A stretch of DNA of 64,000 nt from Pseudomonadales bacterium (GTDB taxonomy: Bacteria > Pseudomonadota > Gammaproteobacteria > Pseudomonadales > Azotimanducaceae): the NCBI GenBank assembly GCA_028283025.1, contig JAPYNO010000045.1, forward strand, positions 13,895 to 77,894, read 5' to 3'. Below the pieces are notes generated by a model. The model was not told where the DNA came from. It saw only the letters and a list, made by a program, of their open reading frames with translations, and made no database searches. The position numbers and the translations under genes were made by a program. Below, piece by piece: positions 21,992 through 56,279 of this stretch (its first letter is position 1; each line of letters starts with the position of its first letter).

Positions 21992-22950
21992 GGGCTCGCA
22001 CGTCCTTTGGTTCTTGGATAGAGGTGACGCTCCCAACGGCGCGTCGTCATCAGCCAGCTTGTCGGCGATGCCCGCACCCAATCTTCGACCTGTCTAAGTA
22101 AGCGCTCGGAAAGCTCTCGCAACTTTGCTGTTTCATCGCCTACGAGCCCTTCAGTGGAAACTGGTTCATGGATGGTCGCGCGCAGCTTGCCGTCGGCGAG
22201 CCGTTCGCACTGGTAGGGAATGAGGTCGCATCCATAGCGTAGTGCGAGGCGCGCAGGCGTCGCCGAAACCTGCATGTCGTGGCCAAAAAACGGTACTTTG
22301 AGGCCGCCGTCAATACGCACATCGATCATGGTGCCGACACTGCCGCCATCGCGAACATGGCGAATGACGGGCTTCAAGGACGCATCTCGGTTGTGCATGA
22401 GGCAACCTGTTTCAGCGCGGATGCCAGTGAGCAAGCGCGCAAGATGTGGATTTTGCAGCGGGGCATAGAAGGCAAGCGCAGGGATGCGCTCAAGCGTGAA
22501 CACCAGCAGTAGCAGCTCCCAATTAGCGATATGCGCGCTCACAAACACGCCAGCGCGTTTTCTTTGACGATAGGGGTCAAGATCGCACTTCGATTCGACT
22601 TGCAGATACTCGTGAGGCGAGCAGACGATCGAGGGAAACTGCGTCAACTCACCGAAGAGCGCGCCGACTTCGCGCCATGCGTCGCTCGCGATGCGCGTGC
22701 GCATCGCTTGCTCTTGGTGCGGGCACACGATGTCGATGTTATCGAGCACCAACTTATGCTTGGGCGAGACCGGGCCGAGCCAGGCGAGCAGCGCTTTGCA
22801 GATGCGCAAGGCGCGTTCGATGCGAAGGCGCGAGAAGATATGGAGCATGCCTGCCAGCATCGAAGCCTCGATGCGCCACAGCAGATTCTGTACCCAGCCG
22901 AGTCGCCGTGCATACTCTTCAAGCTTGTTGGTGAAAAGCAGCCTCGCCAT
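21988..22950 (-). CDS. Lipid A biosynthesis (LpxL/HtrB-type) lauroyl/lysophospholipid acyltransferase, paralog 1
   Basis: 320 aa. The AHIANWEL (H-box) and overall layout fit the LpxL family. The C-terminus reads WLMTTRRW. Confidence 0.65.
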   Translation of the reverse strand: MARLLFTNKLEEYARRLGWVQNLLWRIEASMLAGMLHIFSRLRIERALRICKALLAWLGPVSPKHKLVLDNIDIVCPHQEQAMRTRIASDAWREVGALFGELTQFPSIVCSPHEYLQVESKCDLDPYRQRKRAGVFVSAHIANWELLLLVFTLERIPALAFYAPLQNPHLARLLTGIRAETGCLMHNRDASLKPVIRHVRDGGSVGTMIDVRIDGGLKVPFFGHDMQVSATPARLALRYGCDLIPYQCERLADGKLRATIHEPVSTEGLVGDETAKLRELSERLLRQVEDWVRASPTSWLMTTRRWERHLYPRTKGRASP

Positions 22951-49520: not shown

Positions 49521-49861
49521 CCAATTTAGCCGAAGCCTCGTGCGAGGCGTGCCATCAAGACGCGCCGCCTGTGGAAGGCGCTGAGCTTTCCGCCCTACTT
49601 ACAGAGCTGCCCGAATGGCGGCACGAAACGGTGGAAGGCGTGCCGCGGCTCAGTAGGGACTATCAATTCAAGAACTTTCTCGAGGCGATTGCCTTTACCA
49701 ATGCGGTCGGAGTCATTGCCGAAGAACAAGGCCACCACCCTGCGCTGCTCACCGAATGGGGCAGCGTGCGCGTTTCATGGTGGACACACAAGATCAGAGG
49801 CTTGCACCGGAACGACTTTGTGATGGCGGCGAAGACCGATCGCGCTTACGACAGCTGCTGA
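49517..49861 (+). CDS. phhB: Pterin-4-alpha-carbinolamine dehydratase
   Basis: 114 aa. [23 protein letters not shown] is the PCD signature. ATGA overlap with the preceding gene. Confidence 0.85.
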
Positions 49862-50897
49862 CCGCGCTGGCGAGATTCTCAAGGCAGGCGAGGCTGTCGT
49901 CCCAGCCAAGGCACGCATCCGTGATACTTTGTCCAAAGACAAGATCCTCTCCTTTTTCAAGCGCTTGCCGCCCTTCAATGAGATTGCTTTCAATCATCAC
50001 GCCCATGAGGTGCGAGCCGCCTTGCTTGAGATAGCTGCACAAAGAGTCACAGACATCTATTTGACGCTTGTACTGTTTTTCGCTGTTTGCGTGGCTCGTG
50101 TCAACCATCAAGCGCGTGGGCAGTTCAGCGCTTCGAAGCTGCTCGGCGCAGGCCTCCATGCTGCTTGCATCGAAGTTGGTGCGACCGCCGCCACCACGCA
50201 GGATGACATGGCAGTCGTCGTTGCCTTTGGTTGAGAAGATCGCCGAGTGCCCGTGCTTGGTGACGGATAAAAACACATGCGGATACCAGGCCGAACGCAC
50301 CGCATCGACTGCGATTTGGGTGTTGCCTTGCGTGGAGTTCTTGAAGCCGACCGGGCAGGACAGCCCGGAGGCGAGCTGCCTGTGGACTTGGCTCTCGGTG
50401 GTGCGCGCGCCGATTGCCGCCCATGAGACGACATCGCCCAAGTATTGCGGTGAAATGGGATCAAGGTATTCGGTGCCAGCGGGCAGCCCAAGCTCAGTGA
50501 TGTCGCGAAGCAGGGCGCGGCCTCGCTTGAGCCCTTCGTTGATGTCGCAGGAATCATTGAGGTGTGGATCGTTCAGCAGCCCTTTCCAGCCGATGATCGT
50601 GCGCGGCTTCTCGAAATAGACGCGCATGATCACGAGCAGCTCGTTCTCAAAGCGATTCGCCTGCTCATACAAGCGCTCGGCGTAGACGAGCGCGGCCTTG
50701 GGGTCGTGAATCGAGCAGGGGCCGATGATGACCAAGAGGCGTGGGTCACTGCCGCGCAGCATGTCGCGAATCTGCGCTCGTGCCTCGAACACGACTTTGG
50801 ATGAGCGCTCGCTGAGCGGCAGTTCGGCCACTAGGTCGGCGGGCGCGATGACTTCCTCTTGTCCTGCAATGCGAGTGTCATCGGTGATATATCTCAT
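49794..50897 (-). CDS. 3-deoxy-7-phosphoheptulonate (DAHP) synthase, class I, paralog 2
   Basis: [10 protein letters not shown]..., [49 protein letters not shown] and [12 protein letters not shown]-terminal extension of about 15 aa overlaps the phhB 3' end on the opposite strand. Confidence 0.92.
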
Positions 50898-50898
50898 G
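50890..50898. repeat. 9-bp direct repeat TATCTCATG, left copy (candidate target-site duplication of the IS/ankyrin block)
   Basis: It sits immediately left of the IS terminal sequence CTACTGTCCGG (50899). An identical 9-mer lies at 53382-53390. Confidence 0.55.
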
Positions 50899-51244
50899 CT
50901 ACTGTCCGGTGAAATTATCGAATAAATTTAACTGTCTAGGGAGCGCGGAATTTTCGGAAGTGTAGCCGGTGTCTGTAAGTCTTTCATTCAACGGGATTTT
51001 TTCGAACAGCGTGACCGACAGGCCCTGTAGCAGGGTGTAAAGCGAGGCGTTGAGTCGAGGCGCTTCTGGCGATGGCCACGAGCAGGTGCACGGAGACGGC
51101 GGTCCTGCACCTTGACTGCGTTCTCCGATGTGCCGTGGAACTTCCTGATGCGTAGATGCTGCTTGATCCATTTGAAGAACAGCTCCACCTGCCACCAGGA
51201 TTTGTGCAGCTGGCAGACGGTCGGCGGCGGCTCGAAGAGGTTGG
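50899..51244 (-). mobile_element. Degenerate 3'-terminal fragment (~346 bp) of an IS4-family element
   Basis: It aligns by eye at roughly 90% identity, with indels that break the frame, to 52316-52670. That includes the terminal CTACTGTCCGG and the Y-2-R-3-E-6-K-encoding region. Homology stops at 51244. Confidence 0.8.
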
Positions 51245-51324
51245 CACTACCACACATGTTCGATCTAACATAATTCCAATTTCGAGACATGCATTCGGTC
51301 TATCTTGTGTCGTACTCACGACAT

Positions 51325-52284
51325 TTATTCTTCCGCGCCCGCTTCTCGTAGCGCCCACACAACGGCCGCATTGCCTCTTTTTTCCGCCACGTCAAGCGGC
51401 GTACTGCCGGCTTCGGCCTTGGCGTTCACGTCCGCGCCCGCCTCGATTAGCAGTTCCGCTAAGTCCCAGTGCCCATGCAATGCCGCATCGTGAAGTGGCG
51501 TTCTGCCGTAGTCGTCCTTGGCATTCACGTCCGCGTCTGCTTCGATCAGCAGTTCCGCTATGTCCGCTTTGCCCTGGAATGCCGCCCCGTGAAGCGGCGT
51601 AGCGCCGCCGTCGCCCTTGGCGCTCACGTCCGCACCTGCTTGGATCAGATCATCCGCTATCAGCGCATGTTTTTTGTCCGCATCGTTCTCCTTGCCGTAA
51701 CGCTTTCCCAGCATTCGTAGATGAAGCGGTGTGTTCCCATGCTCGTCCTTGGAGTTCACGTCCGCGCCCGCCCCAATCAGCACACGCACCACGTCCGCAT
51801 GTCCTACAAACGCTGCATAGACAAGCGGCGTTCTGCCGCTGTCGTGCTTGGCGTTCATGTCTGCGCCCGCCTCGATCAGAATTTCCACCATGTCCACTTT
51901 GCCCTGGAGTGCCGCCCTGTGAAGCGGTGTAGCGCCGTCGTCATCCTTGGCGTTCATGTTCGCGCCTGCCTCAATCAGCATTTCCACCATGTCCGCTTCG
52001 CCGGACTCTGCCGCCGCGTGAAGCGGCGTATAGCCACCTTTGTATTTGGCGTTCACGTCCGCGCCTTCCTTGATCAGCTTCCACGCCTCTTCTAGCCTGC
52101 CATTGTGTACCGCAAGATGTAGCTCAGTCCCACCAAGCCTTGCAAAGCAAAACACCACCAGAACAGTCAAGGACACAAGAAGAAGAAGAAGAAGAAGAAG
52201 AAGAAAGGTAGACCATACCCAGCCTAGAAATATAAACAGTACCGCTAATGCTACTAGGGTAATAATCCGTTTCATATTCTTCAT
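51325..52284 (-). CDS. Membrane-anchored ankyrin-repeat protein (about 7 ANK repeats)
   Basis: Repeated G.TPLH.AA..G..D...LLIEAGADVNAKD units. The N-terminal hydrophobic segment includes L9. The start is uncertain: ATG at 52284 or 52275, while the track GTG at 52314 lies inside the IS inverted repeat. Confidence 0.85.
   Translation of the reverse strand: MKNMKRIITLVALAVLFIFLGWVWSTFLLLLLLLLLVSLTVLVVFCFARLGGTELHLAVHNGRLEEAWKLIKEGADVNAKYKGGYTPLHAAAESGEADMVEMLIEAGANMNAKDDDGATPLHRAALQGKVDMVEILIEAGADMNAKHDSGRTPLVYAAFVGHADVVRVLIGAGADVNSKDEHGNTPLHLRMLGKRYGKENDADKKHALIADDLIQAGADVSAKGDGGATPLHGAAFQGKADIAELLIEADADVNAKDDYGRTPLHDAALHGHWDLAELLIEAGADVNAKAEAGSTPLDVAEKRGNAAVVWALREAGAEE
52177..52203. repeat. 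Trinucleotide repeat (AAG)9 on the plus strand, equal to (CTT)9 in the ankyrin gene, encoding Leu9
   Basis: Read directly from the sequence. It is in frame within the predicted N-terminal TM segment FLLLLLLLLLVSL. Confidence 0.95.
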
Positions 52285-52313
52285 TCGTCTATTCCCATTG
52301 TTTCTTTTCCTCA

Positions 52314-53380
52314 CACTACTGTCCGGCGAAATTATTCGATAAATTCAACTGTCTAGGGAGCGTGGAATTTTCGGAAGTGTAGCCGGTGTCTGTTAAGTCG
52401 TTCATTCAACGGGATTTTTTCGAACAGCGTGACCGACAGGACCTGTAGCAGAGTGTGAAGCGAAGCGTTGATGCTGAGGCGCTTCCTGGCGATGGCGACG
52501 AGCAGGTGCACGGAGACGGCAGTCCAGATCTGCACCTTGACCGCGTTCTCCGATGTGCCGTGGAACTTCCTGATGCGTAGATGCTGCTTGATCCATTTGA
52601 AGAACAGCTCCACCTGCCACCGGGCCTTGTACAGCTGGCAGACGGTCGGCGGCGGCTCGAAGAGGTTGGTCAGGAAGACCAGCGTCCTGCGCGTGTCTGG
52701 GTCCTTGAAGCGAATGCGCCGCAGGTGCCGCGGATAGTGCCTGCGGGTGTCGGCACCCGTCGTCGCCACGGTCTGGTCGCAGACGATCCCCTGTTCGCGG
52801 TCGCTCGGCGCCGAGTAGACGCGCCGGAGGCCGGTGTTCGACTTGGCGCGCGTGACGAAGAACGCGCCCGCCTCGTCGAGCGCGCAGAGGCGCTTGAAGT
52901 CGAGGTAGGCGCGGTCCATCACATAGATGGCCGCGGGCTCGGGGATCATGAGGTCGAGGACATTGATGTCATGCAGCCTGCCGTCGGAGACATGGATGAA
53001 GCTCGGGATGTTGCCGCGCAGGTCGAGCAGGGTGTGCATCCTGACCGCCGCCTTGGTGGCGCGGAACGACGCCCAGGGGAACAGCGACAGGCAGAGGTCG
53101 ATGGTGGTGGAGTCCAGTGCGTACACGGTGTTCGACAGGCCCACTGCCAAGGACTCCTCGGCGCGCATCTCCCGCGCCTGCGCGATGAGCCGCTGCGCGA
53201 AGTCGGCGTAGATCCGCCAGTCGCGCCGCTCGTTGGCGTCGGCCAGGGTGGAGCGCCTGACCGGCGAGCGGATGCCCATGTGGTAGAGCTTGGCCGACTG
53301 CGCCGACAGGCAGGCCTCGATGTCGCGCAGGCTTTCCCTGTAGGTCAACTGCACCTTCAGAAGTTAACCGGACAGTAGTG
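52314..53380 (-). mobile_element. IS4-family insertion sequence (1067 bp) with perfect 13-bp terminal inverted repeats, internally 5'-deleted
   Basis: CACTACTGTCCGG lies at 52314-52326 and its reverse complement CCGGACAGTAGTG at 53368-53380. The 9 bp directly flanking this copy differ (TTTTCCTCA versus GTATCTCAT), so this copy has no target-site duplication of its own. Confidence 0.8.
52353..53354 (-). CDS. IS4-family DDE transposase, apparently lacking the N-terminal ~50 aa
   Basis: Signature YKARWQVELFFKWIK (Y-2-R-3-E-6-K), plus VMDRAYLDF. The ORF begins with GTG at ...QLTYRESLRDIEACL, a segment that in full-length relatives as I recall them lies about 50 aa inside the protein. An in-frame TAA sits just upstream, next to the inverted repeat. 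Confidence 0.7.
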   Translation of the reverse strand: MQLTYRESLRDIEACLSAQSAKLYHMGIRSPVRRSTLADANERRDWRIYADFAQRLIAQAREMRAEESLAVGLSNTVYALDSTTIDLCLSLFPWASFRATKAAVRMHTLLDLRGNIPSFIHVSDGRLHDINVLDLMIPEPAAIYVMDRAYLDFKRLCALDEAGAFFVTRAKSNTGLRRVYSAPSDREQGIVCDQTVATTGADTRRHYPRHLRRIRFKDPDTRRTLVFLTNLFEPPPTVCQLYKARWQVELFFKWIKQHLRIRKFHGTSENAVKVQIWTAVSVHLLVAIARKRLSINASLHTLLQVLSVTLFEKIPLNERLNRHRLHFRKFHAP

Positions 53381-53381
53381 G

Positions 53382-53390
53382 TATCTCATG
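53382..53390. repeat. 9-bp direct repeat TATCTCATG, right copy
   Basis: It lies 3 nt beyond the 11-bp core of the right IS end, or 1 nt beyond the 13-bp inverted repeat. It is identical to 50890-50898. Confidence 0.55.
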
Positions 53391-56279
53391 CTATTTGGCT
53401 TCGCTTGGCTTGGTGCTTTTTCCGCCGTGCACCGATGGTTCGCAACACCACTTGGTGCGAAGTACGTCGAATTTGTCAAGATATTTCTCAGAGATACCGA
53501 GTATTTCGAAGATTCGCTCGTCAAGGTGCTTTCTTGCATCGTCTTGATAGGCTTCGTTGGCGGGCAGGAAGCAACTCGCCTTGAGTTCTTCAAAGGCATC
53601 TGCGAATTGCTTGTGCTGCACATCGCTCAAGGCTGCGCAGTCGATGGTGGGTAGATTTGGGAGCTTGGCTGTAGTCAAGCGAGATCGGCCTTGCTGCTGG
53701 CGAGTGCCGTGCCACCAGAAGAGCATCAGGCCAAGAGTTGAATTCCCCCAAAGTAGCAAAGGCATCTCATAAGCTTCATTCATTGGCAACAGGTTCGGCC
53801 AAGCGGTGCCACCGAGAGTCGAATGTGGCGTCAGGCATACGGCAACCGATTGTGAGTTGAGCTGGAAATCGAGGTTGTGATGCAATCGGGAGGCGTATTT
53901 CTGCCACATCTCGACAGCCCTCTGTTTGCAGCCTGTCCTCTCGATGCCTTCTGTGTCTGGGTGAACGATGAATTGCCGTTCTCTTTGTGCATTGTGCGCC
54001 CAGAGCACTGGGTAGGTCGGCACGCCGCTGTCTCGAATCTCCTCGATATCAAATGCGCCTCTGCCGTTGCTGCCATTGATGTCACGATGCATAAGACCTC
54101 GCCTTGCCACCTTATCCATGCTCGTCAAAGGCACGGCGTGGGCAGTGCGCGAGCGCGGCAATACGAGCGTGCCTTCGCACAGCGCCATGAGCGCATCGAT
54201 GAGACTCGAGTCGCGAATCCCTGCGGGATAGAACTTGGCGCCAGTCTCGCGTGGCATTGGGCGCATATGACCCTTTGCGAACTCGTGCGCTTCAAGGCGG
54301 GTTTGCGGTCTCTGCGTCAAGTTCGCGAAATGCACCGTCTTCGAGTGAGTTCCGCCGCCATCGATTTTGGTGGCGAGCACGAGGCATTCGGCCATGCCTG
54401 TGTCTGCCGAAAAAGCGCGGTCGGTATCGCCTGATGCGGCAATAGAGACGATGGTGATGTCGGAATAGTTGCGGGAAAGCGCTTTGCGGGCATTGTCCCA
54501 ACTCTCGCCAGAGGCAAACGAAAACGGCAGAACGAGTGCGAGTACGCCGCCTTCCTTGAGTTTGTCGTGCGCGAGGTCCATGAAGTTGGACGCAAGGCCG
54601 GCGTTTCCATGCCCAAATTGTCTGCTCGGTTGCTCTCTTAGCCGATTCGCCATTTCTCGCTGTTCGTCCTTGGATGTCGCGAACCCCGCAAACGATGGCA
54701 CCGGTACCCCTAGCTCACCTTCGTGGTTAGTTGGCCGCGTGAATGGCGGGTTCATAATCACCAAATCAAAAGTGCCGTGCCCGACCGGGAAGCCTCTGCG
54801 GTCTCCAACCGGCCTCGTGCCTGTGCCTGTCATCCGCTGCCCTGACACTTCGATTTCCTCGCTTGCGCCACTTTGCGCAAAGAGGTTCGTCGCGCTCAGC
54901 TCGGTTGTCCTCAAATCGAGTGCGCCGATGTAGATTCTGTTGCGCTCCGCTTGGATGCGCTTGGAAACCGCTTCATCGGTTCCATACGGCATGACGTGCA
55001 CGAGCGAATCGTGGTAGATGACGTCAGGGTGTGCGCTTGACAGCATTGATGTCGCAAGGTGCGCCGCCGCTGGCATGATGTCAGTGCCTACAAACACATT
55101 TTCCATGAAGTGCTTGTGCAGCGCCTCGTCATCGAGTCCGGAGCGCCGGATTTTGCGATAGACCGCCGATTGCACAGCGGATAGCAGCGTGCCGGTGCCG
55201 CACGCGAAGTCGGCGATCTTGAGCGCTTTTACGGCAGCCTCATCGGCCCAATCTACTTGCATGCGCTGGGCGGCAAGTTCTGCGAGCAACGCAGCAGATT
55301 CCGGCAGCGTGTAGAAGGTGGCGAGGAATTTTCGATCAGCGATGAGCGTTTGGAACATTCTCGCGCCAAGATCATGGAAAGTAGTGGCGCCGAGTTTTTT
55401 GAGTGAGGTTGCTACGGCATCGGCTCTATCCATGAGCTCGACGGCATCCCGCGTGGTCAGCTCATAGGCAAGATCATGCGCAATGCTAAAGATAGGCCAA
55501 TAGTTCACTTCTAGTATCTTTCTCCAGTTTCGCTTCACCCATCTGGGATTAAAAGACCCCGTTGCGCCCAAGGCGCTCTCAACGCTCGGGATGCCGGTGC
55601 GCCCTTCGATCGCGTGGTGAAACACAAACGCATTGATGATGATCGCCACAGCCATTCTCACTGTCTGCTCGCCGGGCTCTTGGTGCAGGACATCGCCGAG
55701 CGCATCAAGCGATGCAAAGGTTTGGCGAAGCACATGGCTTGCTTGGGAGACCCCAAGAAAAAGCGTTTCAGCGCCTTCAACAATTCGCTTCTCGGAAAGC
55801 GATGCGATTTCGACCGCATCGGCAAGGTCATCAACGCCGCCTTCGAGCCATCCGGTGATATGCTTCGGCCACCGCAGGATGCGACTGTTCGTGCCGAGCT
55901 GGTAGATGGCGTACTTAAAGCGAGATTGGGCAATGCCGGCGGCCGTCAAGCCTTGCGGCCATTTCACTGCGATTGCGGCCTCGATGACGGCGCCTCTGTC
56001 GCCGACCTGAAGACCGATACGTTCTTTCGTTTGCTTATGTAGCGCCCTGTTGACGCTATTGGCGCTCGGTGCTTCAAACTTGGTTTCGATTGCGACTGGC
56101 TGCGCGCCAGGGGAATTCACCAACACATCGAGCCTCAGCATGGATTTGCCTTGAATCGTGCCGGTGGAGTCGATGTGCACATTGCCTTCGTTCCATAGCG
56201 GATGCCGCTTAATGAGCAATTCGCCGAGCTTGGCGTTCAGCACCTCTTCGCGCTGTTTAGGTGTTGGGATTGTGGCCAC
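53391..56279 (-). CDS. 962-aa fusion of a PD-(D/E)xK-like N-terminal region, a gamma-class N6-adenine DNA methyltransferase core and a large unassigned C-terminal domain (Type IIG/IIL-like)
   Basis: Motifs read directly: aa 322-327 FYTLPE; aa 357-363 DFACGTG (nt 55191-55211); aa 510-513 NPPF (nt 54741-54752); aa 51-67 D-x13-E-T-K. GTG start with no clear SD. The MTase call is strong. The nuclease call is inference. Confidence 0.65.
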   Translation of the reverse strand: MATIPTPKQREEVLNAKLGELLIKRHPLWNEGNVHIDSTGTIQGKSMLRLDVLVNSPGAQPVAIETKFEAPSANSVNRALHKQTKERIGLQVGDRGAVIEAAIAVKWPQGLTAAGIAQSRFKYAIYQLGTNSRILRWPKHITGWLEGGVDDLADAVEIASLSEKRIVEGAETLFLGVSQASHVLRQTFASLDALGDVLHQEPGEQTVRMAVAIIINAFVFHHAIEGRTGIPSVESALGATGSFNPRWVKRNWRKILEVNYWPIFSIAHDLAYELTTRDAVELMDRADAVATSLKKLGATTFHDLGARMFQTLIADRKFLATFYTLPESAALLAELAAQRMQVDWADEAAVKALKIADFACGTGTLLSAVQSAVYRKIRRSGLDDEALHKHFMENVFVGTDIMPAAAHLATSMLSSAHPDVIYHDSLVHVMPYGTDEAVSKRIQAERNRIYIGALDLRTTELSATNLFAQSGASEEIEVSGQRMTGTGTRPVGDRRGFPVGHGTFDLVIMNPPFTRPTNHEGELGVPVPSFAGFATSKDEQREMANRLREQPSRQFGHGNAGLASNFMDLAHDKLKEGGVLALVLPFSFASGESWDNARKALSRNYSDITIVSIAASGDTDRAFSADTGMAECLVLATKIDGGGTHSKTVHFANLTQRPQTRLEAHEFAKGHMRPMPRETGAKFYPAGIRDSSLIDALMALCEGTLVLPRSRTAHAVPLTSMDKVARRGLMHRDINGSNGRGAFDIEEIRDSGVPTYPVLWAHNAQRERQFIVHPDTEGIERTGCKQRAVEMWQKYASRLHHNLDFQLNSQSVAVCLTPHSTLGGTAWPNLLPMNEAYEMPLLLWGNSTLGLMLFWWHGTRQQQGRSRLTTAKLPNLPTIDCAALSDVQHKQFADAFEELKASCFLPANEAYQDDARKHLDERIFEILGISEKYLDKFDVLRTKWCCEPSVHGGKSTKPSEAK

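Follow-up and report, generated by a model that had tools for sequence, protein, structure and literature searches.

The locus considered here lies in a 64,000-nt stretch (the window) of contig JAPYNO010000045.1, from a Pseudomonadales bacterium of the Azotimanducaceae (assembly GCA_028283025.1), and raises the question of how an ankyrin-repeat gene, accompanied by insertion sequence (IS) material, came to stand between a methyltransferase-like gene and the gene of a DAHP synthase, and whether it arrived as one unit or in several steps. In the initial annotation, an IS fragment, the ankyrin gene and an IS copy were described as one composite flanked by a 9-bp direct repeat. The analysis reported here indicates that this 2.5-kb block is most probably a compound transposon based on an ISPosp4-like member of the IS4 family, inserted in one event from the left inverted repeat (IRL) of the IS remnant to the right inverted repeat (IRR) of a second IS copy, named IS_B. 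All the genes are on the minus strand and, along transcription, the order is the methyltransferase-like gene, IS_B, the ankyrin gene, an 80-nt AT-rich spacer, the IS remnant and the DAHP synthase gene.

The insertion was established by comparison of empty and occupied alleles. The empty site predicted from removal of the block, GGTGATATATCTCATGCTAT, was present in three conspecific metagenome contigs, L118 (Logan SRR10406112), L119 (JGI 3300009875, 135 kb) and L120 (JGI 3300009887), which were reached through the cluster of DAHP synthase proteins at 90% identity and whose left and right flanks share 98.6% and 97.3% identity, respectively, with those of the window. Their junction reads GTCATCGGTGATATATCTCATGCTATCGGGCC, with a single copy of the repeat and without IS or ankyrin gene, and the TAG-C-ATG between the two genes places the methyltransferase stop codon 1 nt from the DAHP synthase ATG, as had been foreseen for the empty site. 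The match to the predicted site covers the junction-critical first 20 nt and is followed by four single-nucleotide polymorphisms (SNPs) in the methyltransferase tail. Because the conspecific strains carry these four SNPs just past the repeat, a pattern scan of metagenome contigs with the exact right-hand empty-site sequence of the initial annotation gave 0 matches. The occupied junctions were reproduced in L122 and L124 (JGI sample 3300009888) and in the Logan SRR10406114 contigs L123 (left) and L125 (right). Both junctions were identical across three independent assemblies and are thus not assembly errors. Runs and samples whose accession numbers neighbour one another differ in the state of the insertion site, which is therefore a polymorphism within one species; since some of the sampled populations are occupied and others empty, the insertion happened within the species. 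In four other congeneric species (G002, G003, G004 and G005), the methyltransferase-like gene lies directly upstream of the DAHP synthase gene with a 10–16-nt spacer, and neither IS nor ankyrin gene was found at that junction. An ankyrin gene at this locus without IS ends, which had been named as the arrangement that would speak against mobilisation, was seen in none of these relatives; the empty contigs and the four species lack both.

The class of the IS determines which termini and which duplication are to be expected. The IS_B transposase matched PF01609 (8e-28) and the IS4-family model NF033592 (261.6 bits against a cut-off of 115), and covers only positions 47–74 of the DUF4372 model. 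The IS is ISPosp4-like and belongs to the IS4Sa-type group of the IS4 family. The relatives compared were ISPosp4 (Polaromonas JS666 plasmid 2), a Klebsiella plasmid copy, congeneric copies and 80 public-genome loci, with 75 copies of intact length. These share the termini 5'-CA(C/G)TA(C/G)TGTCC...GGACA(C/G)TA(C/G)TG-3' and measure close to 1.33 kb when full-length. In 53/75 intact-length copies, the CA and TG termini are immediately flanked by a perfect 9-bp duplication, and a 10-bp duplication was found in one. Among the 53 duplicated 9-mers (related loci within L015–L116), A was favoured at position 1 (38/53, 72%), T at position 2 (26), A at position 8 (26) and T at position 9 (31, 58%), a weakly palindromic A-T-N5-A-T target preference. 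For the IS4Sa subgroup, ends of the form CA------T and direct repeats of 8–10 bp are given by De Palmenaer et al. (2008; PMC2266710, Table 1). The end consensus (5'-CA, T at position 9) is shown by the inner copy, with CACTACTGT at both ends, and by the 75 relatives, whereas the left outer end of the unit departs from it (G-CTACTGT).

With these termini, the target duplication could be placed. The 9-mer TATCTCATG was found just twice in the window, at 50890–98 and 53382–90, and CTACTGTCCGG occurs at 50899 (+), 52316 (+) and 53368–78 (−), so the coordinates given in the initial annotation were all correct. Judged from the relatives, the true IS termini are CA-CTACTG...CAGTAG-TG, and the family-consistent duplication is (A/G)TATCTCAT at 50889–97 and 53381–89. 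The direct repeat is thus a real duplication whose register had been set one base off; likewise, the repeat described as lying 3 nt outside the right end was correctly located as TATCTCATG but is only 1 nt from the true terminus at 53380. The left copy, ATATCTCAT (50889..50897), has A1, T2, A8 and T9 and is a perfect fit to the target preference, whereas the register of TATCTCATG would give T at position 1 (4/53) and G at position 9 (3/53). The right copy, GTATCTCAT (53381..53389), adjoins the canonical right terminus and matches the left one at 8/9 positions. The repeat identity extends to 12 nt (TATCTCATGCTA, at 50890–901 and 53382–393), since the IS end opens with CTA, which on this strand is also the reading of the methyltransferase stop codon. 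Relative to the empty allele, 9 bp are duplicated, within the 8–10 bp of the subgroup and equal to the 9 bp of this clade; the initial annotation had left room for a family duplication of another length, which was not found. Since the conspecific empty allele has a single copy, chance does not account for the duplication. The DAHP synthase ATG sits within the duplicated target, and the net insert is 2492 nt, compared with the 2493 nt expected from a canonical event.

The arrangement inside these boundaries resembles that of a single transposable unit. The outer ends are IS ends in inverted orientation bracketing the cargo, as initially described and confirmed by the positions of the IS ends, and the duplication brackets the whole block and not the individual IS copies. 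The IS remnant (50898..51244, minus strand) has its IRL outward, comprises 346 nt and matches roughly the final 356 nt of a full-length copy (master positions 969–1324); positions 50893–51244 are 91.7% identical to 52310–52669. The inner copy at 52314–53380 has no flank repeat of its own, as had been observed before: TTTTCCTCA, at its inner IRL, is unrelated to GTATCTCAT (3/9 matching). Additionally, the remnant and IS_B diverge by 8.3%, against 1.4–2.7% between the flanks and those of the empty-site strains, and the far larger divergence of the IS parts implies that they were already about 8% different at landing. From this we infer a composite in which the remnant IRL and the IRR of the second, same-orientation copy would serve as outer ends, with the ankyrin gene and its 3' spacer as cargo. 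The IS transposase, supplied either by the inner copy or by a full-length copy elsewhere, would have acted on both outer ends, and the whole block would have been inserted by one cut-and-paste event into ATATCTCAT, across the DAHP synthase start codon, duplicating 9 bp. Afterwards, a small CA-to-G change at the left terminus would have restored the native TAGC-ATG context. The proposal that the ankyrin gene was mobilised as the cargo of one unit is thus supported by the empty allele, the bracketing duplication and the unrelated inner flank, all of them read from a single insertion.

Several observations weigh against a compound transposon landing in one step. At the left outer terminus, three assemblies agree in having G-CTACTG where the canonical end is CA-CTACTG, and without the conserved CA the unit as it stands does not have two cleavage-competent outer termini. 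The two copies of the duplication differ at their first base (A versus G), a difference that may be a relic of the TAC codon present in three other species. A canonical landing followed by drift alone would call for two or three later mutations within 11 nt, which is unlikely. The interior of the inner IS varies by assembly, so that the unit may or may not code for a transposase of its own. Finally, neither a second copy of the unit nor a donor site was found in the genome contigs or the JGI metagenome contigs. Of the searches proposed in the initial annotation, that for the empty site succeeded and that for other insertions of the IS-ankyrin unit gave none. A scan of metagenome contigs for the ankyrin/IS junction specific to the unit gave 0 matches, and the exact ankyrin protein was found solely at this locus; recall was limited, since the large protein search missed the window's own protein. 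The same unit was therefore seen neither at more than one locus nor in transposition, and its mobility as a unit rests on one insertion.

The left terminus deserves closer consideration. On the coding strand, ...CAGTAGTG|ATGAGA... would be expected and ...CAGTAGC|ATGAGA... is now present, which equals the native TAGC-ATG of the empty site; the change from CA to G thereby produces the 12-nt identity of the repeats. It is possible that the change was a short conversion templated by the right-hand copy, or that it reflects selection for the native stop-restart context, whereas neutral decay is unlikely because the divergence of the flanks is so low. A P-nucleotide-like mis-opening of a hairpin was considered as the source of the extra G and dropped, since the expected base would be C. 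The change probably immobilised the left end. In a full-length copy of the same isoform (L121), the transposase stop is a TAG inside the terminal CAGTAGTG (L121:1322–1326; window 50899–50901), which means that with each insertion a stop codon comes to lie 2 nt from the flank. What is left of the transposase frame in the remnant (51195–50899) stops at this TAG, here 1 nt before the DAHP synthase ATG. A more far-reaching reading, offered with little confidence, is that the unit has been caught in the act of IS-mediated spread of a eukaryote-like ankyrin gene between strains of an uncultured gammaproteobacterium and was then fixed by a templated or selected change from TAGTG-ATG to TAGC-ATG, which would have killed the transposon end and restored the stop-restart coupling of the DAHP synthase, now to the remnant transposase frame and not to the methyltransferase gene.

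Other histories could have produced the same structure. A stepwise origin in place is unlikely, with a solo IS inserting and duplicating 9 bp before its interior was replaced or expanded, through homologous recombination or gene conversion, by a remnant-ankyrin-IS structure present elsewhere. Under such a route, the outer ends would still carry the duplication; the points where the remnant breaks off and the second copy takes over are homologous IS positions (51244 corresponds to 52669), as expected if IS homology had guided the event, and IS relics do exist elsewhere in the genome (contigs C41 and C38). Nevertheless, the composite would have to pre-exist elsewhere anyway, which makes the replacement an extra step, no solo-IS intermediate was seen in six assemblies of this locus, and the non-canonical left terminus would be left unaccounted for. 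That terminus, lacking the terminal CA needed by DDE transposases, would sit more easily with illegitimate, microhomology-mediated recombination, in which the 9–12-bp repeat would be a by-product and not the trace of a staggered transposase cut, and the 12-nt length of the repeat (TATCTCATGCTA) points the same way. This explanation was considered very improbable: the right junction is exactly canonical, the duplication has the 9 bp of the family, the target fits its A-T-N5-A-T preference, the boundaries of the block are IS terminal repeats in inverted orientation, and the last 3–4 nt of the 12-mer are explained by an IS end starting with CTA beside the native stop codon CTA.

It was also considered that the repeat pre-existed the insertion, given that G002 and G003 carry a near-repeat at this junction (CATGAGACA..CATGAAATA, 14 nt apart), or that the structure is an assembly chimera, given the assembly-dependent IS interior. 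The near-repeat was rejected as the origin of the 9-mer, since the conspecific empty sites hold a single copy with 1-nt spacing, and both junctions are identical in the three independent assemblies of the occupied allele; the empty sites and the reproduced junctions together effectively refute this alternative.

The inner copy, IS_B (52314..53380, minus strand), is 1067 bp long in this assembly and has 13-bp terminal repeats, CACTACTGTCCGG, at both ends. The description of this copy as complete held for the terminal repeats, both of which are present, but not for the interior, which in the window lacks master positions 30–286 (257 bp), comprising the promoter region, the start codon and transposase residues 1–47. 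L122 and L125, independent assemblies of the same insertion, have the right junction of the window with the 257-nt segment attached to it, and two private SNPs. L122 (L122:4489–5584) is without 229 nt further in (master positions 380–607), and L125:5899–6155, from the Logan assembly, has the first 256 nt of the segment missing from the window. Outside the IS interior, the assemblies of this insertion are 100% identical. A full-length and possibly autonomous IS copy may thus be present at this locus. The genome bin holds no contigs under 2000 bp, and a 1.3-kb contig of collapsed IS copies would therefore have dropped out. The full-length copy L121 was found as a stand-alone contig of the Logan assembly SRR10406116, whose accession adjoins the runs carrying the two alleles; it measures 1326 bp, encodes a 393-aa transposase and shares 97.9% identity with IS_B and 94.8% with the remnant (about 92–95%). 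Beyond L121 (97%), the nearest transposase proteins were 82–84% identical and came from metagenome-assembled genomes of Porticoccaceae, SAR92, Binatia and Pseudomonadales. A further piece of the same IS, at C41:9000–9381 and with 96.7% identity to IS_B, borders on an IS3-family orfA-like fragment and ends at the contig end exactly on the deletion junction of the window (GGTCAACTG). A related IS copy (73% identical) was also observed at G002:C1:1046008–1046968, about 6 kb from the DAHP synthase locus of that congeneric species.

Compound transposons of the IS4 family include Tn10 with IS10 and Tn5 with IS50, and Tn9-type units have directly repeated IS copies. The block shares with these systems two IS copies around a passenger gene, the use of the outer ends and a 9-bp duplication around the unit, and in them too one flank can be defective. 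It differs from them in that one flank is only a 346-bp end remnant, which makes it a minimal or pseudo-compound unit, in that the cargo is an ankyrin-repeat gene and not a resistance gene, in its non-canonical left terminus, and in being known from sequence alone. The IS itself resembles ISPosp4 and IS4Sa in its DDE_Tnp_1 transposase with N-terminal DUF4372, its length of about 1.33 kb, its CA------T ends and its 9-bp duplication; intact transposases of the family have about 389–393 aa with DUF4372, whereas the window copy is without residues 1–47. With about 69–73% nucleotide identity to ISPosp4-type plasmid copies, it is a distinct isoform. Mobile insertion cassettes, among them MIC231, which derives from the IS4-family element IS231, likewise have a passenger gene between IS-type terminal repeats, and the cognate transposase moves the element in trans. 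In the present block, one flank may still be a whole IS with its transposase gene, and the ends come from two diverged IS copies. In ISEcp1-type systems, an IS moves adjacent DNA by pairing its own end with a more distant, imperfect surrogate end; here, the IS family differs from ISEcp1, and the surrogate end, far from a chance look-alike, is a true IRL from the family of the IS itself. The block is best regarded as an IS4-family compound transposon or a cassette-like element with an unusual cargo, and otherwise an ordinary insertion.

The cargo gene (51325..52284, minus strand) encodes a protein of 319 aa, called at the same length on the JGI contig, with a hydrophobic N-terminus and matches to Ank, Ank_2 and related families (E to 2e-61). 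The cargo is read as a gene for an ankyrin-repeat membrane protein with its native 3' spacer. The G+C (guanine plus cytosine) content of the gene is 57.3%, compared with 57.1% for the genome. An (AAG)9 tract at 52177–52203, reading CTT (Leu) on the coding strand, lies in the part encoding the hydrophobic N-terminus and is identical in the JGI assembly. The AT-rich spacer 3' of the gene (51245..51324) starts with CACTACC, which resembles an IS end, meets the remnant at GGTTGGCACTACCACAC and contains a repeat of about 50 nt with a predicted hairpin at 51262–51324. A partial ankyrin paralogue at the end of contig C31 shares the last codons of the gene and the downstream element of about 50 nt (97% over 38 nt), which suggests that the ankyrin gene may have been captured from a resident gene family and not imported from a distant donor. 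The hairpin element (GTGTCGTA(G)CTCACGACAT) was observed three times, in the window at 51262–51324, at C31:~22400–22456 and at C35:44955–45017; two copies directly follow the stop codons of ankyrin paralogues and the third lies between divergent genes. Neither the genus nor a large protein database yielded an ankyrin orthologue above about 50% identity; the negative from the database is of low weight, since that search missed the window's own protein. The ankyrin gene begins about 30 nt past the IS end, downstream of the transposase gene and on the same strand, and a weak outward promoter-like site was predicted at 52396–52367; it is plausible that ankyrin expression is driven from the IS.

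The flanking genes show the context into which the unit was inserted. The DAHP synthase of the left flank (49794..50897, minus strand) is AroG-type (PF00793, 5e-87; TIGR00034), with an N-terminus collinear with those of relatives. The gene of the right flank (53391..56279, minus strand) encodes an Eco57I/N6-methyltransferase-like protein of 962 aa, with weak matches to both PF07669 and PF02384, and its stop codon TAG occupies 53391–53393. It adjoins the DAHP synthase gene in all relatives that have it, and is an accessory gene decaying in some lineages. In L117 (5119–6000), from a relative with a DAHP synthase of 90% identity, all that is left of the 2.9-kb gene is an 880-bp remnant between purN and the DAHP synthase gene, with frames that still resemble the methyltransferase-like C-terminal part. 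In G002 and G003 (L011 and L012), the 16 nt that separate the methyltransferase stop codon from the DAHP synthase ATG are similar to the start of the DAHP synthase gene (12/15 nt) and hold a mini-frame, ATGAGACAACATCCATGA, whose stop overlaps the true DAHP synthase ATG. In the window, the duplicated DAHP synthase start beside the methyltransferase stop opens a 10-codon decoy frame, MRYHYCPVNF*, into the IS end (53357–53390).

The known rules of IS4-family compound transposons are followed at this locus, which adds a further example to them and no new principle. The insertion splits a translationally coupled gene pair, yet leaves a look-alike coupling signal in its place. 'Eukaryote-like' ankyrin genes are often discussed for host-associated bacteria and, to our knowledge, their acquisition has rarely been documented at base resolution. 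With its natural empty and occupied alleles, this locus offers a clean example of an ankyrin-repeat gene moved as transposon cargo.

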